Part shown: piece by piece, positions 1 through 5,732 of the stretch
How the letters are laid out: every line of letters starts with the position of its first letter
Numbering within the stretch: the first letter of the stretch is position 1
DNA from: Escherichia coli
GTDB lineage: Bacteria > Pseudomonadota > Gammaproteobacteria > Enterobacterales > Enterobacteriaceae
Assembly (NCBI RefSeq): GCF_030013595.1
Contig: NZ_CP122774.1
Reading direction: 5' to 3' (one strand)
Length of the DNA stretch: 5,732 nucleotides
Position numbers and translations under genes: made by a program
The notes under the pieces: generated by a model
What the model saw: the letters and a program-made list of their open reading frames with translations, nothing else
Databases searched by the model: none
Told to the model about the DNA's origin: nothing

Positions 1-495
1 ATGGCGGGCACAGTATGGCGTGACATAAGAACGGGAGAGACTGTTTTTCCTATGGGGCACCTGCACCCTCAGAGGTGCTGTGTTGATGTAAACGGTACTT
101 CTGTAGATATAGAAATTAGTTTTGGTTTTCATGTTTTTACTGATGAAAAACAAACCGGAATGCTGATGAAATTTAAGGAGGAACAGAGGTTTTTTTGTAG
201 GGAACGCTATGAGGGCAGCAAAACTATCGTTCACAGAATACTTACAGCGATAGAAAACGGTGAATACATTACAGCATTTATTTCAAAGGGGCAGGGGCAG
301 CGGTATTACCATCTTAGCCATCATGATGACTTCATTTTGATGGAAATAAGAAAGCCTCAAGATAGAAATAATTCTTTGCGTATTCATGTTGTTACAGCTT
401 ACACGCTTGATGAATGGGGGACTGTAAATAAAGGACGTAACCTGCGGTTTAGATATGTGCTGGAACAGCGACTGCAGGGAAAGAAGATTGTGTAA
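1..495 (+). CDS. Hypothetical protein, 164 aa as drawn; candidate distal gene of a two-gene accessory cassette. Start uncertain (ATG at 1, or internal ATG at 52).
   Basis: Uninterrupted ORF from position 1 to TAA at 493-495. AT-rich relative to the backbone. Followed at once by a strong hairpin terminator. An alternative start at ATG 52 is preceded by GGGAGAG (33-39). No family recognised by eye; the HLSHHDD and RIHVVTAY segments are not diagnostic. Confidence 0.5.
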   Translation: MAGTVWRDIRTGETVFPMGHLHPQRCCVDVNGTSVDIEISFGFHVFTDEKQTGMLMKFKEEQRFFCRERYEGSKTIVHRILTAIENGEYITAFISKGQGQRYYHLSHHDDFILMEIRKPQDRNNSLRIHVVTAYTLDEWGTVNKGRNLRFRYVLEQRLQGKKIV

Positions 496-531
496 AAAAC
501 AAAAAGCGCCTAAGGCGCCTTTGTTTTTTGC
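495..531. terminator. Rho-independent terminator, probably bidirectional
   Basis: GC stem GCGCC (506-510) / GGCGC (514-518) with a TAA loop, flanked by an A-run (495-505) and a T-run (519-530) that are themselves complementary, so the hairpin plus U-tract works on either strand. Confidence 0.75.
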
Positions 532-679
532 AGAATTTCGGTCTGGCCTTTCGTTATCCCGCTCACAGGCTGGGAGGGTGTGACCCCCGGCATCAGCACC
601 CCTCTCTCGAGGTTCCGGTTTGTGCTGACAACATTAGTATCCTATTCCACATGTTCGTTGTCAAACTAGCGTACTTTTT

Positions 680-770
680 GGTGTTCATTGGTGTTTATAG
701 GTTGTCATTTACCCTCTTTGTGGTTATAAGTGTTTATAGGTTTTCATTGTTTTTTATAGGTGTTCATATG
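680..770. repeat. Direct-repeat array: three copies of TTTATAGGT(T/G)NTCAT(T) plus GTTCAT half-motifs, overlapping the promoter and start of the downstream HTH gene
   Basis: tttataggttgtcatt at 694-709, tttataggttttcatt at 733-748, tttataggtgttcat at 754-768; ggtgttcatt at 680-689. Spacing between copies is 39 and 21 bp. Confidence 0.6.
702..730 (+). promoter_or_regulatory. Putative sigma70 promoter (TTGTCA, 17 bp spacer, TATAAG) for the AlpA-like gene
   Basis: -35 TTGTCA at 702-707, 17-nt spacer, -10 TATAAG at 725-730, embedded in the repeat array about 40 bp upstream of ATG 768. Confidence 0.35.
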
Positions 771-1070
771 AAGTTGCTTGATAGTAATGAAGTGTGTGAG
801 CTCTTAGGCATCAGTAAGTCCACTTTGTATCGTTGGTGCGGGGTGTCTGAGGATTTTTCTGGCTTGGGTCTAAGTAGCGGTCTTCCTCAGGCTAACGCTA
901 CTCAGAACTCTTTAGGCAGGGAAAATAGGCTCGTTAGGAGGGAATTACAGCAAAACGCTCTCGGTGTCGAAGAGACGCCAAGCGACTTCCCTCGTCCTTT
1001 CAAGATCGGTCGTTCGTTTAAATGGAAAGACGCCGAAATTATGGCTTGGCTTGAAACGCGACGCGTTTGA
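768..1070 (+). CDS. AlpA/Xis-family-like helix-turn-helix DNA-binding protein (about 100 aa) with an internal insertion
   Basis: N-terminus LLDSNEVCELLGISKSTLYRW and C-terminus FPRPFKIGRSFKWKDAEIMAWLE match the AlpA/excisionase-type HTH pattern (xLSRSTIYR ... FPKPxKLGxRxxxWxxxEIxxWL). The listed ORF begins at 528, but its first 80 codons are translation of the repeat array and the first plausible start is ATG 768. Both start and product are uncertain. Confidence 0.5.
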   Translation: MKLLDSNEVCELLGISKSTLYRWCGVSEDFSGLGLSSGLPQANATQNSLGRENRLVRRELQQNALGVEETPSDFPRPFKIGRSFKWKDAEIMAWLETRRV

Positions 1071-1083
1071 TTGATAGATCTTC

Positions 1084-1112
1084 TTGAGATCATTTGGATC
1101 TCGTCGTAGTCT
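1084..1112 (+). promoter_or_regulatory. RNA II (primer) promoter of the ColE1-type replicon
   Basis: -35 TTGAGA (1084-1089), 17-nt spacer, -10 TAGTCT (1107-1112). Same position as the pMB1/ColE1 RNA II promoter (cttcTTGAGAtc ... TAATCT), recalled from memory. Confidence 0.7.
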
Positions 1113-1119
1113 TTTGTCC

Positions 1120-1227
1120 TGTAAACGAAAAAACCACCATGGCAGGTGGTTTTTCGAAGGTTATTTAATCCTGGCAGATTGAATAACCGTGGTAACAGCC
1201 TTGTGCGAGACGTGTCACCAAATCTGT
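1120..1227 (-). ncRNA. RNA I antisense copy-number control RNA (about 108 nt, approximate ends)
   Basis: The minus-strand terminator is the complement of gtaaacgaaaaaaccaccatggcaggtggttttt (1121-1154). The 5' end aligns with the conserved ccaaat.ctgtcc block (1218-1230). The minus-strand promoter (-10 complement agtgta at 1234-1239, -35 complement cttcaa at 1258-1263) matches the pMB1 RNA I promoter layout. Loop sequences differ from ColE1/pMB1. Confidence 0.7.
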
Positions 1228-1635
1228 CCTTTCAGTGTAGCCTCACTAAGGCCACCACTTCAAGAACTTTGAATACATCTCTCGCACATCCTGTTTACCA
1301 ATGGCTACCGCCACTGGCGATTTTTCGTGTCTGTTCCGGGTTGGACTCAAGATGATAGTTACCGGGACAACGTGGTAGTCGGGCTGAACGGGGGGTTCTT
1401 GCATACAGCCCAGCTTGGAGCGAACTGTCTAAACGGAACGGGACGTGGTGATTTAGGTAAAGCTTCCACCACAACACGGATGCCGCAGGACGGGAACAGG
1501 AGAGCGCAAGAGGGAGCCGCCAGGGGGAAACGCCTGGTATCTTTAAGTCCTGTCGGGTTTCGCCACCTCTGACTTGAGCGTCGATTTTTGTGATGCTCGT
1601 CAGGGGGGCGGAGCCTATGGAAAAACGCCAGCGGC
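1121..1635 (+). ncRNA. RNA II pre-primer transcript (approximate ends)
   Basis: Inferred from the promoter at 1084-1112 and the conserved origin switch region near 1620-1640. Ends are not determined. Confidence 0.65.
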
Positions 1636-1799
1636 GTGGCCTTCTCTGGGTTCTTGTTTTTTGCTCACATGTTTCTTTTGGTGTTATCCCCTGATTCTGT
1701 GGATAACCGCATTACCGTCTTTGAGTGAGCTGATACCGCTCGCCGCAGCCGAACGACCGAGCGTAGCGAGTCAGTGAGCGAGGAAGCGGAAGAGCGTCG

Positions 1800-1940
1800 G
1801 AAGTTGCATTTTCTCCTTACACATCTGTGCGGCATTTCACACCCGGCATGGCGCACTTTTCATACAATCCGCACTGATGCCGCATGGTTAAGCCAGTATA
1901 CACTCCGCTATCGCTACGTGACTGGGTCATGGCTGCGGCC
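1800..1940. other. bom/oriT (basis of mobility) region of a ColE1-type plasmid, expected to contain the nic site
   Basis: Near-identity, by recollection, to the pBR322/ColE1 bom segment (catacaatc.gc.ctgatgccgcat.gttaagccagtatacactccgctatcgctacgtgactgggtcatggctgcg), lying between ori and rop as in ColE1. Confidence 0.7.
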
Positions 1941-2018
1941 TGACGCGCCCTGACGGGCTTGTCTGCTCCCGGCATCCGCTCACAGACAAGCTGTGACCGT
2001 CTCCGGGAGCTGTATGTG

Positions 2019-2210
2019 TCAGAGGTTTTCACCGTCATCCCCGAAGCGTGCGAGGCAGCTGCGGTAAAGCTCATCGGCGTGGTCGTGAAGCGATTCACAG
2101 ATGTCTGCCTGTTCATCCGCGTCCAGTTCGTTGAGCTTTTCCAGCAGCGTTAATGTCTGGCTTCTGATAAAGCGGGCCATGTTAAGGGCGGTTTTTTCCT
2201 GTTTAGTCAC
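2019..2210 (-). CDS. rop: Rop/Rom, RNA I-RNA II interaction modulator (63 aa)
   Basis: Translation MTKQEKTALNMARFIRSQTLTLLEKLNELDADEQADICESLHDHADELYRSCLARFGDDGENL matches the ColE1/pBR322 Rop sequence as I remember it. Here the start codon is GTG (complement of 2208-2210), with GGAGG 6 nt upstream on the minus strand. Confidence 0.95.
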   Translation of the reverse strand: MTKQEKTALNMARFIRSQTLTLLEKLNELDADEQADICESLHDHADELYRSCLARFGDDGENL

Positions 2211-2250
2211 TGATGCCTCCGTGTAAGGGGGGATTTCTGTTCATGGGGTA

Positions 2251-2598
2251 ATGATACCGATGAAACGCGAGAGGATGCTCACGATACGGGTTACTGATGA
2301 TGAACATGCACGGTTACTGGAACGCTGTGAGGGTAAACAGCTGGCGGTATGGATGCGGCGGGTCTGTCTGGGTGAGCCGGTTGCCCGTTCCGGGAAGCTG
2401 CCGACACTGGCACCGCCGTTACTGCGCCAGCTGGCTGCCATCGGGAATAATCTGAATCAGACGGCGAGGAAGGTGAACAGCGGGCAGTGGTCTTCCGGTG
2501 ACCGGGTTCAGGTGGTGGCCGCACTGATGGCCATCGAGAGAGAGTTGCGCAGCTTACGGCAGGTCGTCAGGGAACATGGAGCGCGGGATGATAGTTAA
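2251..2598 (+). CDS. mbeC: Mobilisation protein MbeC (MobC-like relaxosome accessory protein). Alternative in-frame starts at 2260 and 2275 (MLTIRV).
   Basis: Translation ...MLTIRVTDDEHARLLERCEGKQLAVWMRRVCLGEP... is the MobC/MbeC N-terminal pattern; the 5' part is the same sequence retained as a remnant in pBR322. Stop TAA at 2596-2598 overlaps the mbeA start. Confidence 0.88.
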   Translation: MIPMKRERMLTIRVTDDEHARLLERCEGKQLAVWMRRVCLGEPVARSGKLPTLAPPLLRQLAAIGNNLNQTARKVNSGQWSSGDRVQVVAALMAIERELRSLRQVVREHGARDDS

Positions 2599-4330
2599 GT
2601 TTCATGCCAGGGGAAAAGGCGGTGGCAGTGGTCCGGTTGATTACCTGCTGGGAAGGGAGCGTAACCGGGAAGGGGCAACGGTGCTTCAGGGTAATCCGGA
2701 AGAAGTCCGGGAACTCATCGATGCCACGCCATTTGCGAAGAAATACACGTCAGGTGTTCTGTCGTTCGCGGAGAAGGAGCTGCCGCCTGGAGGGCGTGAA
2801 AAAGTGATGGCGAGCTTTGAGCGTGTACTGATGCCCGGTCTCGAGAAAAATCAGTACAGCATCCTGTGGGTGGAGCACCAGGACAAGGGACGGCTTGAGC
2901 TGAATTTTGTCATTCCGAACATGGAGCTACAGACCGGAAAACGCCTCCAGCCGTACTACGACCGGGCAGACAGGCCGAGAATTGATGCCTGGCAGACGCT
3001 GGTTAATCACCATTACGGGCTGCATGACCCCAACGCCCCGGAGAACCGCCGGACGCTGACCCTTCCTGATAACCTGCCGGAAACGAAACAGGCGCTTGCA
3101 GAGAGCGTCACACGCGGGATAGACGCTCTTTATCATGTCGGGGAGATAAAAGGCCGTCAGGATGTGATTCAGGCGCTCACAGAGGCAGGGCTTGAAGTGG
3201 TCAGGGTGACGCGAAGCAGTATCAGCATTGCAGACCCGAACGGTGGGAAGAATATCAGGCTGAAAGGAGCATTTTATGAGCAATCTTTTACAGACGGGCG
3301 CGGAGTTCGAGAAAAAGCTGAAAGAGAGAGCCGAATCTACAGAGACAATGCTGAACGACGAGTTCAGCAAGCTCGAAAAATCTGTAAGCAAGGCTGTGAC
3401 ATCAAACGAGACGAAAATCAAAGACGCTATAGCCCTGTTCACAGCTTCGACAGAGGAATCACTGAAAAAACACCGGGAAGGGGTGAAAGAGGCGATGATG
3501 CAGCACAGGAAGGACGTGTTAAAGCTGGCAGGGAATACGGGCATGATGTTACTGGGGATGGTCCTTTTCCTGTTTACCGTGAGTGGCGGGACGCTCTGGT
3601 ATCTTGGCGGGCGGATACAGGCGAACCTGGAAGAAATCAGGATACAGGAAGAAACATTGCAGAAACTGAACGCGAAGACATGGGGCGTGGAGTTTGTGCA
3701 GGACGGGAGAAGGAAATTTCTGGTCATCCCGCAGGGGAAATCGGCAACGGTGATTCCCTATCAGGAGAAGGACTGGGTACAACTGACGGAGTGACACAGA
3801 GTGACGGAGCTGGAAAGACATTTGCTGAACGCCTTAGAGCAACTGCAACAGGACTATATGCAGCGGCTGAGCGAATGGGAGAGCGCCTTCGTGGAATTGC
3901 AGAAAATGTTTTCGCTTACGCAACGGGACAACGCGATGCTGAACGAGCAGGTCATGCAGTTGAGTCAGCAGGTGCAGCACTTGAGCGAGCGGACAGAACG
4001 CTTGAGCCAGTTATACAGCGAGAACAGGAGATAAGGGACGAACGGCTGATACAGGAGCGCGAACATGAGTTATCCCTGGAGCGTGAGCGCCAGCTGGAAA
4101 TACAGGAACGGACACTGGATGGCATGGTAATCAGAGACAGGCTAAAATGTTGTCAGCGCGTTTCCGGTGCATTTTTTGGGATAATGGTTGGTTCGGGGGC
4201 ACCGGGAACGCGCTTCAGTCAGACCTTGCTGAAAACACAGGAACGCGTTAAAACGCATACGGGCGCGATTCTGGTGTGTCTTTTGTTGCTGTGTTTTGCC
4301 TCTATTGCCAGATCGCGCTCATTCCCCTGA
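2588..4330 (+). CDS. mbeA: Mobilisation relaxase MbeA (ColE1-type). 580 aa from ATG 2588 (the ORF track starts 4 codons earlier at 2576); 3' boundary should be verified.
   Basis: N-terminus MIVKFHARGKGGGSGPVDYLLGRE is the canonical relaxase start. The ORF overlaps the mbeC stop by 11 nt and contains mbeB and mbeD in the +1 frame, as in ColE1. The hydrophobic C-terminal tail (ILVCLLLLCFASIA) is atypical. Confidence 0.85.
   Translation: MIVKFHARGKGGGSGPVDYLLGRERNREGATVLQGNPEEVRELIDATPFAKKYTSGVLSFAEKELPPGGREKVMASFERVLMPGLEKNQYSILWVEHQDKGRLELNFVIPNMELQTGKRLQPYYDRADRPRIDAWQTLVNHHYGLHDPNAPENRRTLTLPDNLPETKQALAESVTRGIDALYHVGEIKGRQDVIQALTEAGLEVVRVTRSSISIADPNGGKNIRLKGAFYEQSFTDGRGVREKAERESRIYRDNAERRVQQARKICKQGCDIKRDENQRRYSPVHSFDRGITEKTPGRGERGDDAAQEGRVKAGREYGHDVTGDGPFPVYREWRDALVSWRADTGEPGRNQDTGRNIAETEREDMGRGVCAGREKEISGHPAGEIGNGDSLSGEGLGTTDGVTQSDGAGKTFAERLRATATGLYAAAERMGERLRGIAENVFAYATGQRDAERAGHAVESAGAALERADRTLEPVIQREQEIRDERLIQEREHELSLERERQLEIQERTLDGMVIRDRLKCCQRVSGAFFGIMVGSGAPGTRFSQTLLKTQERVKTHTGAILVCLLLLCFASIARSRSFP
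3276..3794 (+). CDS. mbeB: Mobilisation protein MbeB (172 aa), nested in the +1 frame of mbeA
   Basis: 172-codon ORF with AGGAG (3265-3269) 6 nt upstream of ATG 3276. Position and length agree with ColE1 mbeB; it has a central hydrophobic segment (MMLLGMVLFLFTVSGGTLWYL). Confidence 0.8.
   Translation: MSNLLQTGAEFEKKLKERAESTETMLNDEFSKLEKSVSKAVTSNETKIKDAIALFTASTEESLKKHREGVKEAMMQHRKDVLKLAGNTGMMLLGMVLFLFTVSGGTLWYLGGRIQANLEEIRIQEETLQKLNAKTWGVEFVQDGRRKFLVIPQGKSATVIPYQEKDWVQLTE
3801..4034 (+). CDS. mbeD: Mobilisation protein MbeD (77 aa), same frame as mbeB, GTG start 6 nt after the mbeB stop
   Basis: GTG at 3801 with GGAG 10 nt upstream. Coiled-coil-like sequence (LEQLQQDYMQRLSEWESAFVELQKMF...). 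Position corresponds to ColE1 mbeD. Confidence 0.7.
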   Translation: MTELERHLLNALEQLQQDYMQRLSEWESAFVELQKMFSLTQRDNAMLNEQVMQLSQQVQHLSERTERLSQLYSENRR

Positions 4331-4435
4331 ACTTCTGTTTTCCCGCTCCGGTCCCCGTCTTCTTCGCTTCCGAAAGCATGAAAAAAATCCGTTTCAGCTG
4401 TCTCTGGCTGGCAATTCCTGCGTGATTCACATGGC

Positions 4436-4577
4436 TGCATAGCTATGCATGTGGTTAAAATTTACCGGGTGCGATCGCGGCAGTTTTTCGGGTGGTTTGT
4501 TGCCATTTTTACCTGTCTGCTGCCGTGATCGCACCGAACGCGTTTCTGCGGTGCGGGCAACGGATGTTATGGTAAAT
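4436..4577. other. cer/psi-like Xer site-specific recombination (multimer resolution) site: accessory region with a palindromic box plus XerC/XerD core
   Basis: Core GGTGCGGGCAA-CGGATG-TTATGGTAAAT (4550-4577). The right arm is identical to the cer/dif XerD arm TTATGGTAAAT as I recall it, and the left arm is GGTGCG..CAA like the XerC arms. A perfect 14-bp palindrome TGCATAGCTATGCA (4436-4449) lies about 100 bp upstream, where cer carries its ArgR box. Confidence 0.55.
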
Positions 4578-4693
4578 ATTGGTGCTCTGGGATGAAGCGA
4601 AAATAGGCTTTTTTTCGCTATTTTAGCCTGTTCAGGAACGGCAAGAGTAAATATCTGGGAGCATGAAGCTCGTTAACCTGAATGGAGATCCTG

Positions 4694-4858
4694 ATGATGG
4701 ACAAAGATACCACCACCCTAAAACGCACTTTGGCTCATAATCGAGCCTTTAGCGATAATATTAACCGCAGTGGCATAGCCTGGTGCTATAACACTGAGAT
4801 TGTACTCGCTGCTTGTGAGGCGATTGAAGCCGAACTACAACGGCGAGGATGTTTGTAA
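4694..4858 (+). CDS. Small hypothetical protein (54-55 aa: MMDKDTTTLKRTLAHNRAFSDNINRSGIAWCYNTEIVLAACEAIEAELQRRGCL)
   Basis: Not in the ORF track (below its length cutoff). GGAG at 4684-4687 sits 6 nt upstream of tandem ATG ATG (4694-4699). TAA at 4856-4858 is followed within 10 nt by a strong terminator. Confidence 0.4.
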   Translation: MMDKDTTTLKRTLAHNRAFSDNINRSGIAWCYNTEIVLAACEAIEAELQRRGCL

Positions 4859-4865
4859 CAATAAG

Positions 4866-4889
4866 AAAACCCGCATCAGCGGGTTTTTT
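4866..4889 (+). terminator. Rho-independent terminator
   Basis: aaaacccgc-atca-gcgggtttttt: perfect 9-bp stem, 4-nt loop and a T-run. Confidence 0.75.
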
Positions 4890-4960
4890 AGTCTCTGAGA
4901 CGCGCTACCGCTAAATTATTTTTCTCTCTATCCGCCCTGGCTTGCCCCCTACAACCCCAT

Positions 4961-5007
4961 GGAGCACAAGGAGCACAGGGAGAACCATCGAGCACAACGA
5001 GCACCGC
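4961..5007. repeat. Five tandem degenerate 9-bp repeats (G)GAGCACA-type
   Basis: ggagcacaa | ggagcacag | ggagaaccatc | gagcacaac | gagcaccgc, read directly from the sequence, immediately upstream of the AT-rich tract. Confidence 0.6.
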
Positions 5008-5009
5008 CT

Positions 5010-5190
5010 TCCTCTTATAAATCATTATTAATCATATAATTAAACAACTTCATTGTAATATATATTACTTTTTATGTTTTTAAATGTAATGTTTATTGCG
5101 ATTTAGCTTGTTTTTAACTCTATTTTTTCAGATGAGAACAAGCTGCCAGCAATGAATAACTATTTGATTTTATTGGTTTTTTCAATAAAT
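5010..5190 (+). promoter_or_regulatory. AT-rich leader or promoter tract upstream of the terminal gene (exact promoter not mapped)
   Basis: About 180 bp of strongly AT-rich sequence with several TATAAT-like and TTGA-like hexamers (for example ttataaatcattattaatcatataatt and ttgtaatatatattac), contrasting with the GC-rich backbone. Confidence 0.35.
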
Positions 5191-5219
5191 TAGTGTCCAT
5201 AGACAAACGGGAGACGACT

Positions 5220-5732
5220 ATGTCCGCAAGAGCAAGAAAAGCAGGTAAGAGAAATCAGTCAGAACGACGTCAGGATTTGATTGAAAAATTGTGGGAAGAC
5301 GACGAAATCGATACTTGGCATCGACTTGAAAATGATGGGTACTCAACAGTTCCACGTTATTTGCCTTTGATAGGCGATCTCATGGATGGTCTGTCAAAAG
5401 GATCACCATTATCAACAACCTACTTGGCTTTATGGTTCAGGGTTTCTGATGAGGGGTTGATTGAAATAAGAGATAAAGCAGCACTGGCTTTTGAATCAGG
5501 GTTCGCTAGTGAAAGAGGCGTAACTACATGGGCAGGGAGAATGAAAAAGCTAAAAGAACTGGGGTTCATATCCTGTCGTGAAGGCAGCACCGGTGAATTT
5601 CATTACGTGTTAATTGTTCACCCATTAGTTGCAGTCAAAAAGCTGCTTGATGAAGGGATTATCCCTAAAGGAAAGACTTATAACATTTTGTCGGAGCGTG
5701 TAATTGAGGTGGGAGCCTCTTGGGAGGGTTAA
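5220..5732 (+). CDS. Hypothetical winged-helix-like DNA-binding protein (170 aa from ATG 5220; the ORF track starts at GTG 5193). Candidate proximal gene of the two-gene accessory cassette.
   Basis: GGGAG (5208-5212) lies 7 nt upstream of ATG 5220. Basic N-terminus (ARARKAGKRNQSERRQ). The central segment TTYLALWFRVSDEGLIEIRDKAALAFESGFASERGVTTWAGRMKKLKELGFISCREGSTGEFHYVLI has a helix, helix-turn-helix and beta-wing pattern typical of wHTH regulators, Rep proteins or antitoxins. Stop TAA is the last three bases of the window. Confidence 0.6.
   Translation: MSARARKAGKRNQSERRQDLIEKLWEDDEIDTWHRLENDGYSTVPRYLPLIGDLMDGLSKGSPLSTTYLALWFRVSDEGLIEIRDKAALAFESGFASERGVTTWAGRMKKLKELGFISCREGSTGEFHYVLIVHPLVAVKKLLDEGIIPKGKTYNILSERVIEVGASWEG

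Follow-up and report, generated by a model that had tools for sequence, protein, structure and literature searches.

A small mobilizable ColE1-type plasmid from Escherichia coli with a two-block mosaic replicon

The 5,732-nt stretch of E. coli DNA that we analyzed (the window) is very probably an entire small plasmid, mobilizable and with a replicon of the ColE1 type, built as a two-block mosaic through the crossovers described below. Its control RNA is unlike that of ColE1 and pBR322, yet its rop, transfer and origin-core parts are near-identical to theirs, because the plasmid is a recombinant of two known plasmid types. The replicon was assigned to the ColE1 type by its RNA I family match, three-stem-loop fold, origin core and Rop. 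Replicons of this type rely on host Pol I and RNase H and require no Rep protein of their own; a Pfam scan of six proteins (cargo ORFs, Rop and MobC) gave no match to a Rep family. It is an ordinary small plasmid of the ColE1 family, sequenced before and of a known type. Twelve full-length records with the same arrangement, 98.8 to 99.2% identical, come from separate laboratories and from different hosts in the USA, the UK, the Netherlands and elsewhere; a Tn3-bearing derivative and a trimer record show the arrangement as well.

Two blocks and two junctions

Identity profiles were drawn against nine and then eight reference plasmids, and base-level lists of differences were made for the parents. 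Block A (4578-5732 plus 1-1545) was 99% identical to p12379_3 of Enterobacter kobei over 2.7 kb, cargo included. Part one differed by 13 substitutions and two indels in 1185 nt, and part two by 15 substitutions and one 24-bp indel in 1567 nt; nearly all 60-nt bins of part two were at 97 to 100%, the lowest being 90% and 95%. Besides its ORFs and repeats (table), part two holds RNA I with its promoter, the RNA II promoter and, from the 5' end, ~425 nt of RNA II. The exchanged block is far larger than the control region, taking in all of the cargo as well. Neither cargo ORF of part one matched a Pfam family. The E. kobei plasmid is also found in Klebsiella oxytoca, E. cloacae and E. hormaechei.

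Block B was 99.3% identical to E. coli pCFS3246-3, with 21 substitutions and two deletions in 2980 nt. Most of its 40-nt bins were at 100%, to pCFS3246-3 from ~1600 and to pRHB27-C20_8 and a Salmonella 6.3-kb plasmid from ~1920. The block was patchy, with 16 copy-specific substitutions and one more in five clusters inside mbeA, and the stretch 1621-1740 was nearest to pColK. At ~100% identity, this backbone is also joined to RNA I of other types, at least four of them (pCFS3246-3, pRHB30-C10_8/pRHB27-C20_8, the Salmonella 6.3-kb plasmid and a Shigella sonnei 5.5-kb plasmid), and block A is likewise paired elsewhere with another backbone.

Table. Features of the window (positions in the 5,732-nt stretch)
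Feature	Position	Strand	Basis or content
Block A, part two	1..1545		164-aa ORF 1-495, sraL-like RNA, direct repeats, AlpA-type HTH ORF 768-1070
RNA II promoter	-35 TTGAGA 1084-1089, 17-nt spacer, -10 TAGTCT 1107-1112	plus	position-for-position alignment with ColE1/pMB1
RNA II primer transcript, ~505 nt	1121..1625	plus	homology to ColE1/pMB1 RNA II
RNA I, antisense copy-number/incompatibility RNA	1227 to ~1120	minus	Rfam match and fold
RNA I stem-loops	SL I 1220-1190, SL II 1188-1159, SL III 1156-1126	minus	fold
RNA I promoter	-35 TTGAAG 1263-1258, -10 TACACT 1239-1234	minus	read from sequence
Junction 1, in conserved origin core (agtcctgtcgggtttcgccacc)	1546..1567		parent-specific sites
Block B	1568..4547		origin point, bom/oriT region, rop, mobC/mbeC, mbeA/B/D, cer accessory sequences
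rop (Rom), 63 aa, GTG start	2019..2210	minus	Pfam PF01815, E = 7.6e-38
cer-like XerC/XerD core, GGTGCGGGCAA-CGGATG-TTATGGTAAAT	4550..4577 (28 bp)	plus	aligned to ColE1 cer, GGTGCGTACAA-TTAAGGGA-TTATGGTAAAT
Block A, part one (cargo)	4578..5732		small ORF 4694-4858, 170-aa ORF 5220-5732

At junction 1, sites peculiar to the E. kobei type ended with the indel at 1545, and those peculiar to the pCFS3246-3 type began at 1568. Informative substitutions favored E. kobei over pCFS3246-3 by 73:1 on the left and pCFS3246-3 by 95:0 on the right (Fisher p = 8e-48), which bears out the suggestion of an earlier note on this DNA that the replicon arose by recombination among ColE1-family plasmids. Across junction 2, 57 informative sites of the pCFS3246-3 type were followed by 31 of the E. 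kobei type. Here the window matches pCFS3246-3 as far as 4578 and E. kobei p12379_3 starting at 4548, and because the window and both parental types share one and the same cer core (4550-4577), this junction can be placed no finer than 4548-4580, a 33-bp interval that coincides with the cer-like core. When pRHB30-C10_8 was taken as the parent of block B, the junction apparently fell just left of the XerC arm; pCFS3246-3 was the better parent, and with it the interval spans the core. A cer-type dimer-resolution site has ~180 to 200 bp of accessory sequence upstream of its core and recombines in dependence on XerCD, ArgR and PepA. In the window, the XerD arm is identical to that of ColE1 cer at 11/11 positions and the XerC arm at 9/11, and the accessory region (4432-4577 in the window, 3792-3938 in ColE1) is 85% identical. 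The central region is 6 bp long, in contrast to the 8 bp of ColE1 cer (PMC5357621). In many plasmids the backbone homology stops at 4577/4578, the outer edge of the XerD arm.

Origin of the mosaic

Three-sequence parsimony, in which the plasmids compared are contemporary ones and not ancestors and the direction of exchange is unproven, favors the window type as the recombinant. Block A would then derive from the lineage of E. kobei p12379_3, and block B, with the last ~60 to 80 nt of RNA II, the origin point, bom/oriT, rop, mbeABCD and the cer accessory sequences, from a ColE1-like lineage of pCFS3246-3. The crossover at junction 1, within 22 bp of universally conserved origin core, would presumably have been homologous recombination. 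For the order and enzymology of the two crossovers, we infer that the most likely path ran from an Xer-mediated fusion of plasmids at cer sites to resolution within the origin core. At cer, XerC forms a Holliday junction that host functions resolve (PMC5357621). An exchange of the rop-relaxase region by way of oriT and cer was proposed earlier (PMC8683028), and that paper cites Tran et al. 2012 and Zakharova et al. 2002 for modular exchange among small ColE1-like plasmids through oriT and Xer/cer.

The mosaic may also be read correctly while both crossovers were RecA-dependent, between co-resident plasmids and with no role for Xer, a course that we consider possible but rather unlikely. Junction 1 clearly lies in plain homology, the flank of cer is 62 to 78% identical between the parental types and the 28-bp core fully so, and RecA acting in that 30-bp stretch of identity, or in the homologous cer sequence beside it, would leave the same junction 2. 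Opportunity exists as well, since related ColE1-type plasmids do co-reside. On the other hand, junction 2 matches the core within its 33-bp resolution, the homology between plasmids with unrelated cargo ends at 4577/4578 as repeated site-specific exchange would give, and exchange of modules at cer/Xer has already been proposed for ColE1-like plasmids (PMC8683028). A different history, in which the window type is the older one and the E. kobei and pCFS3246-3 types each gained one block separately, appears improbable: three sequences cannot be rooted, and both blocks occur in several other combinations, making the family a network rather than a tree, but two events are needed here instead of one, and since block B also occurs beside four or more other control cassettes and block A beside another backbone, neither block depends on the arrangement of the window.

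Divergence in place, with RNA I and RNA II altered by diversifying selection for a new incompatibility specificity and no recombination at all, is very hard to reconcile with the data. In each pairwise comparison, RNA I varied more than any other part of the ColE1-family origins, and compensatory stem changes do separate the window from the 4052-bp Klebsiella type (GGTTATT/AATAACC versus GGTTAGT/ACTAACC); however, the diverged region stays 99% identical to the E. kobei plasmid through unrelated cargo, the conserved region is equally close to another plasmid, and the switch between the two is abrupt. An assembly chimera of two co-resident plasmids is scarcely conceivable, because even though strains do carry two related ColE1-type plasmids with 2.6 kb of identical sequence in common, which short-read assemblers can mis-join, the arrangement recurs in the 12 independent full-length records, the Tn3-bearing derivative and the trimer.

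The preferred reading, recombination between two ColE1-family plasmids with one crossover at cer, is accompanied by observed co-residence. Window-type plasmids naturally share a cell with other ColE1-family plasmids in two unrelated strains: RHB30-C10 carries pRHB30-C10_9, of the window type, together with pRHB30-C10_8, and RM12579 carries p12579_3, a window-type replicon with Tn3/blaTEM-1, together with p12579_5. The RNA I of the co-resident plasmids was of neither the ColE1 nor the window type. Two further candidates were set aside. The two plasmids of strain UID2309220026 with the same control region were linear "unlocalized" contigs with the same genes, that is, redundant fragments, and plasmid unnamed3 of ETEC6335 is a Rep-protein plasmid without RNA I.

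Control region and incompatibility

In ColE1, RNA II primes replication, and RNA I sets copy number and incompatibility; the three loops of RNA I kiss the complementary loops of RNA II, and Rop, present in many but not all ColE1-type replicons, stabilizes the kissing complex. By homology, RNA II of the window would start at ~1121, be processed near 1625 and prime replication, with RNA I setting copy number and incompatibility and Rop (2210-2019) stabilizing the kissing. The RNA II promoter was placed against the TTGAGA...TAATCT of ColE1/pMB1. A simple consensus scan returned no sigma-70 promoter in 1040-1700; the homologous pMB1 promoters, with -10 TAATCT for example, also fall below its threshold by our own hexamer count, and the scan result was not taken as absence. 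The RNA I promoter is kept in all of the ColE1-family references aligned. The length of pMB1 RNA II is 555 nt, and this published length, applied to the aligned sequence, gave the end point in the table; the switch from RNA to DNA would lie at the end of the A run in ggaaaaacgcc, at ~1621-1627.

RNA I matched Rfam RF00106 at 77.1 bits (gathering score 47, E = 1.9e-13), with the model covered over its full length of 1-102 (1226-1125, minus strand). When the RNA was folded, as the earlier note had proposed, the minimum free energy structure had three hairpins and an unpaired 5' tail of 8 to 9 nt, at -39.7 kcal/mol compared with a shuffle mean of -21.6 (z = -5.09; 0/200 shuffles folded as well). 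The loops read CGCACA(A), UGCCAG and UGCCAU for I, II and III. For comparison, RNA I of ColE1, pBR322, pCFS3246-3 and pRHB30-C10_8 was delimited by Rfam coordinates, and a deposited pBR322-backbone record, a 100% match to the pMB1 origin, served as the pBR322 reference. Aligned RNA I was 51.9% identical to ColE1 and to pBR322 alike, the blastn alignment of both to the window was lost between 1139 and 1216, and all three loops differed from those of ColE1/pMB1, in agreement with the earlier note, which had called the stem-loops of this region different.

Identity to ColE1 and the pBR322-backbone record was 38 to 51% in 1141-1220, 50 to 78% in the body of RNA II to ~1500, and 36 to 53% in 1421-1500, where the window is ~30 nt shorter. 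It rose to 90 to 100% in 1501-1620, an origin core held at that level with ColE1, pBR322, pMUT1 and pColK, and was mostly 95 to 100% from bom through rop. The earlier note was thus right that the origin core and bom are close to ColE1/pMB1 and that 1121-1230 is diverged, and wrong to confine the divergence to that stretch, since the RNA II body has diverged to ~1500 as well. Rop, which it had called near-identical, is in fact identical at 63/63 residues to ColE1 and pBR322 Rop (common accession WP_000165985.1). The GTG start of rop, which it had set against an ATG in pBR322, does not distinguish the window, as rop also starts with GTG in ColE1 (GTGACTAAACAG) and in the pBR322 backbone (GTGACCAAACAG).

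Distance from ColE1/pMB1 does not make the control RNA a distinctive type: 13 deposited plasmids carry an RNA I 100% identical to that of the window. Identity was 98% to the E. kobei type and 90 to 94% to pMUT1 and the Klebsiella group of 4052 bp, compared with 52% to ColE1/pMB1, and in 656 PLSDB records of the pMUT1-like group RNA I was 90 to 95% identical to that of the window. The window has loops I, CGCACA(A), and II, UGCCAG, in common with E. kobei p12379_3, the 4052-bp Klebsiella plasmid, pMUT1 and the S. sonnei 5.5-kb plasmid. Judged by its sequence, the RNA I belongs to the pMUT1-like group and is not a new type. Because the control RNA is of this group, RNA I should not cross-inhibit ColE1/pMB1 primers, and the plasmid would be compatible with ColE1/pMB1 itself. 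Two papers on the E. coli Nissle plasmids gave no clean pairwise test of pMUT1 versus pMB1 compatibility. Directed-evolution work cautions that compatibility cannot be predicted from differing loop sequences alone (PMC9458437).

Loop III is UGCCAU in the window and UGCCAG in the other pMUT1-like members (A versus C at plus-strand 1139). The A is present in all 13 records with identical RNA I and in none of the E. kobei, Klebsiella, pMUT1 or S. sonnei types. Single loop bases are reportedly able to alter incompatibility, as work by Tomizawa and Itoh in 1981 and by Lacatena and Cesareni in 1981 is said to have found, and RNA I could accordingly have a new specificity that makes the plasmid compatible even with the parental pMUT1-like group. 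The lineage-specific A would fit this, as would p12579_5, which resides with a window-type replicon, has the same loop I and differs by one or two bases in loops II and III, with stems that differ too. We nevertheless find a new specificity doubtful: the changed base sits at the edge of the loop, adjoining the stem, the 5' tail and the other two loops are those of the E. kobei type, and window-type plasmids were not seen together with pMUT1-group plasmids in one strain, the only apparent case being an assembly artifact. It is similarly a long shot that the change from UGCCAG to UGCCAU was a recently fixed escape from incompatibility and that the cer core with its 6-bp center is an active intermolecular Xer hot spot. 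If the former were true, the recombinant would coexist with its own parental pMUT1-like group, and if the latter, the origin-rop-mbe block would be shuffled among control cassettes.

Significance and comparison with known plasmids

The plasmid, typed as a replicon cluster of its own (rep_cluster_2392), is a simple hybrid of clusters 2335 and 2350, and one rop-mbe backbone circulates with several RNA I cassettes. Replicon typing of small ColE1-like plasmids hence does not follow the rest of the plasmid, and several can stack in a cell. Because Tn3/blaTEM-1 was gained in one strain, the type is of some interest as a small multicopy vehicle for resistance genes. Beyond this bookkeeping, the importance is small: incompatibility set by RNA I and exchange of modules at cer are textbook matter and previously proposed for ColE1-like plasmids, and dimer resolution, mobilization and Rop are, on sequence grounds, standard ColE1 parts.

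Compared with the published model of exchange at oriT and cer, one module boundary lies at cer/Xer in the window too, whereas the other, instead of being at oriT, lies in the origin core, with ~60 to 80 nt between it and the origin point downstream; with the boundary there, the exchanged module takes in the origin point and bom. E. kobei p12379_3 (NZ_CP083860.1, 5413 bp) shares block A at 99%, with the cargo ORFs, the sraL-like RNA, the HTH gene and RNA II to 1567, and its RNA I differs at 2 positions in 102 nt; beyond 1568 it has another origin-distal region, lacks rop, and its mbe genes are only ~67% identical. Conversely, pCFS3246-3 (NZ_CP053652.1), pRHB27-C20_8 and pRHB30-C10_8 share block B at 99 to 100% and differ in the control region, with RNA I 55 to 62% identical, and in cargo (ParA or a restriction-modification system). 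The RNA I of pMUT1 (E. coli Nissle 1917) and of the 4052-bp plasmids common in Klebsiella and E. coli (MOB-suite ColRNAI_rep_cluster_1987) is close to that of the window, with one loop III base and a few stem positions different, the latter partly compensatory, but rop, mob and cargo of these plasmids are unrelated or distant; Rop of pMUT1 starts with ATG, and its rop region is ~48 to 72% identical in DNA. ColE1 (NC_001371) and pMB1/pBR322 have in common with the window the promoter layout, the three-stem-loop architecture of RNA I and the RNA II-primed origin, and ColE1 also shares bom and mbe at 88 to 100% identity and cer-like accessory sequences. The window departs from them in its loops, where ColE1 has UUGGUAG twice, and in an RNA II that is ~50 nt shorter, with 1421-1500 diverged.

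Two-block structure and its junctions

The 5732-bp window is a complete small mobilizable plasmid, and identity profiles against many references resolved it into two blocks (see the table). Block A, in which lie the cargo ORFs, the genes for an sraL-like RNA and an AlpA-type HTH protein, the promoters of RNA I and RNA II, RNA I itself, and some 425 nt of RNA II, differed from E. kobei p12379_3 (NZ_CP083860.1) by 28 substitutions plus three indels in about 2750 nt. Block B, with the 3' end of RNA II and its origin point, bom/oriT, rop, mobC/mbeC, mbeA/B/D, and cer accessory sequences, differed from E. coli pCFS3246-3 (NZ_CP053652.1) by 21 substitutions plus two deletions in 2980 nt. At junction 1, the informative substitutions favoured the E. 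kobei type by 73 to 1 on the left side and the pCFS type by 95 to 0 on the right side (Fisher p = 8e-48); at junction 2, 57 pCFS-type sites gave way to 31 of E. kobei type. The two blocks and the switch at junction 1 bear out the proposal of the earlier note that the replicon is a mosaic formed by recombination within the ColE1 family.

Positions of the blocks, junctions, and features of the plasmid
Feature	Position	Strand	Remarks
Block A	4578-5732, then 1-1545		99% to E. kobei p12379_3
Block B	1568-4547		99.3% to E. coli pCFS3246-3
Junction 1 crossover interval	1546-1567		22 bp of origin core, same in both parental types
Junction 2 interval	4548-4580		Contains cer-like core
cer-like core	4550-4577		GGTGCGGGCAA-CGGATG-TTATGGTAAAT; aligns with ColE1 cer XerC arm, central region, XerD arm
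RNA I	1226-1125	minus	Rfam RF00106, 77.1 bits (gathering score 47)
sraL-like RNA	496-629	minus	RF01408, 84.7 bits (gathering score 39)
Direct repeats	680-770		Several of ~11 bp (gtgtttatagg and similar)
AlpA/HTH_17-type DNA-binding ORF	768-1070		Pfam E = 4.4e-10
Cargo ORF	5220-5732		170 aa
Cargo ORF	1-495		164 aa
Deletion, 23 bp	1937/1938		Versus all 5775-bp relatives
Deletion, 11 bp	4123/4124		Versus all 5775-bp relatives
Deletion, 9 bp	4996-4998		Versus all 5775-bp relatives
mbeA substitution clusters	2788-2845, 2934, 3054-3064, 3244-3274, 3726-3734		16 substitutions together

A megablast search of 72,556 plasmid records gave 12 full-length relatives (98.8-99.2% identity). Most were E. coli plasmids of 5775 bp, isolated in several countries from pigs and humans, and the plasmid has already been deposited many times. 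The relatives included p12579_3 (NC_017654.1) of E. coli O55:H7 RM12579 and a record of 17.3 kb, about three unit lengths, in which the control region occurs at several sites; this record was taken to be a trimer. Of 5426 complete E. coli genomes, about a dozen had the exact control region, with 14 records matching it at ≥99%. MOB-suite typed the plasmid as rep_cluster_2392, and its two halves corresponded to clusters 2335 and 2350. Positions 1-6300 of p12579_3 carry a Tn3-family transposon with blaTEM-1, plus IS4-family fragments, so the window-type backbone is able to acquire resistance genes. Strain UID2309220026, a RefSeq "complete" assembly, has two linear, unlocalized contigs; a reading of these as two co-resident plasmids with identical origins was rejected, as both are redundant pieces of a single window-type plasmid.

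Block B is indeed a backbone shuffled among control cassettes: at ~100% identity it also occurred with at least four RNA I types other than that of the window. Its carriers were pCFS3246-3, whose RNA I loops contain CCCC like those of CloDF13; pRHB30-C10_8 and pRHB27-C20_8, which share one RNA I type whose stem-loops I and III look like those of p15A RNA I; a Salmonella 6.3-kb plasmid; and an S. sonnei 5.5-kb plasmid with a pMUT1-like RNA I. The RNA I region of pCFS3246-3 is tandemly duplicated, with two RF00106 matches (5190-5279 on to 1-14, and 51-141), the second copy being without stem-loop III; the duplication may be genuine or may have come from assembly at the beginning of the record.

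Control region and RNA I relatives

In the ColE1 mechanism, DNA synthesis is primed by RNA II, loop-loop kissing by RNA I stops primer maturation, and the kissing complex is stabilised by Rop. Replication control in the window was assigned to this mechanism by homology, the replicon being of the ColE1 type in every respect at the sequence level. The RNA I fold had three stem-loops and an unpaired 5' tail (-39.7 kcal/mol, z = -5.09, with 0 of 200 shuffles as good). By alignment, the RNA II and RNA I promoters are positioned as in ColE1/pMB1, and a simple consensus promoter scan called neither.

The aligned RNA I was 51.9% identical to ColE1 (NC_001371) and equally so to a deposited pBR322-backbone record. 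Sliding identity to both was 38-51% at 1141-1220, 90-100% at 1501-1620, and mostly 95-100% from bom through rop, and Rop was identical to both at 63 of 63 residues. Thus, the earlier claim of a diverged RNA I beside a conserved origin core, bom, and Rop stood, while its confinement of the divergence to 1121-1230 did not: the RNA II body is diverged as well, up to about position 1500, and the segment 1421-1500, which lies in block A, shared only 36-53% identity with each of the four classical references (ColE1, the pBR322 backbone, pMUT1, and pColK), the window being ~30 nt shorter there. The supposed contrast between a GTG start of rop here and ATG in pBR322 disappeared, since rop of ColE1 and of the pBR322 backbone also starts with GTG.

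The RNA I is no orphan type. When its 110-nt region was compared with PLSDB, 14 records matched at ≥99% (13 at 100% among the matches listed), 12 at 95-99% (at least five at 98.2%, the five listed all being one 5413-bp plasmid of Enterobacter and Klebsiella), and 656 at 90-95%, pMUT1-like and 4052-bp Klebsiella plasmids among them. RNA I identity to the window was 98.0% for the E. kobei type, 94.1% and 93.1% for the 4044-bp and 4052-bp plasmids, 92.2% for the S. sonnei 5.5-kb plasmid, and 90.2% for pMUT1. Throughout this group loop I read CGCACA(A) and loop II read UGCCAG, whereas loop III was UGCCAU in the window lineage but UGCCAG in every other member (plus-strand A versus C at 1139). The sole other RNA I difference from the E. 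kobei type was a G·U for an A-U in stem I, at 1199. We therefore class the RNA I, by its sequence, as a one-loop-base variant of this common pMUT1-like group, which it otherwise fits; its loops are not those of the ColE1/pMB1 incompatibility type. The earlier note would have taken identity with a known, common type as refuting its reading, and the RNA I of the window comes close to such identity because loops I and II are those of the group and loop III differs by one base.

Coexistence, cargo side, and changes in this copy

Window-type plasmids coexist naturally with other ColE1-family plasmids. In strain RHB30-C10, from a pig farm in the UK, pRHB30-C10_9, of window type, occurred together with pRHB30-C10_8; their block B sequences were 100% identical in the majority of 40-nt bins between about 2600 and 4520 and 88-100% in 1921-2600, and their RNA I only 62%. 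A sister isolate probably has the same pair, judging by the adjacent accessions CP057309/CP057310, of which CP057309 alone was examined. Strain RM12579 (USA, human) carried p12579_3, with a window-type replicon, together with p12579_5, which matched at 92.9% across 1076-4578 and had a 67% identical RNA I with the same loop I and with loops II and III differing by 1-2 bases. Neither co-resident, pRHB30-C10_8 or p12579_5, had the ColE1/pMB1 RNA I. Because the window type has no loop in common with ColE1/pMB1, we infer that it would be compatible with ColE1/pMB1 itself; by experiment, loop differences by themselves do not predict compatibility (PMC9458437).

The two cargo ORFs abut, TAA directly followed by ATG, gave no Pfam match, and are kept in the E. 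kobei plasmid family. The shorter one has a bidirectional terminator in common with the sraL-like RNA, which strongly matches the Hfq-binding sRNA family sraL and is also present in p12379_3. Blastn located this element in 19 of 5426 E. coli genomes, in each case on a plasmid and never on a chromosome, and we therefore regard it as a diverged, plasmid-borne SraL-like RNA. The direct repeats immediately upstream of the HTH ORF look, together with that ORF, like an operator or iteron array.

Besides the three deletions, this copy had 17 substitutions relative to the 5775-bp relatives, all but one in five clusters inside mbeA, and none of these changes fell in the control region. The mbeA substitutions were private to this copy with respect to both the 5775-bp relatives and pCFS3246-3, and, since some cluster bins were closer to ColE1 or to Salmonella/Shigella plasmids, they suggest that a third ColE1-like plasmid contributed small patches by gene conversion. 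The 23-bp deletion lies directly 3' of gggtcatggctgcg (bom/oriT-homologous region), and the 11-bp deletion alters the end of the mbeA frame (a 584-aa ORF here versus ~518 aa annotated in NC_017654); mobilisation of this copy may therefore be impaired.

Proposed route and known systems

Homology between the window and pCFS3246-3 stopped at 4578, and many further plasmids, which carry unrelated cargo, likewise matched the backbone only as far as 4577/4578. Most likely, the mosaic arose when XerCD fused two ColE1-type plasmids at their cer-like cores, after which crossing over by homology within the origin core would have freed the hybrid monomer. A purely RecA-dependent history is possible as well, the window and both parental types being identical across the cer-like core. 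In work by Summers from 1989, cer hybrids with a 6-bp centre reportedly recombine intermolecularly without accessory factors, which, if it applied here, would favour the plasmid fusion. The centre of the cer-like core is indeed 6 bp, versus 8 bp in ColE1 cer, at which the Holliday junction made by XerC is resolved by host functions (PMC5357621).

That RNA I sets incompatibility and that ColE1-like plasmids recombine in modules is already well documented; all that is added here, and it is modest, is an explicit reconstruction from two parents and the mapping of the junctions. A passage of PMC8683028 on the ColE1-like family proposes exchange of the rop-relaxase region via cer and oriT sites, crediting Tran et al. 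2012 and Zakharova et al. 2002; in contrast to that exchange, the second boundary in the window lies in the origin core, not at oriT.
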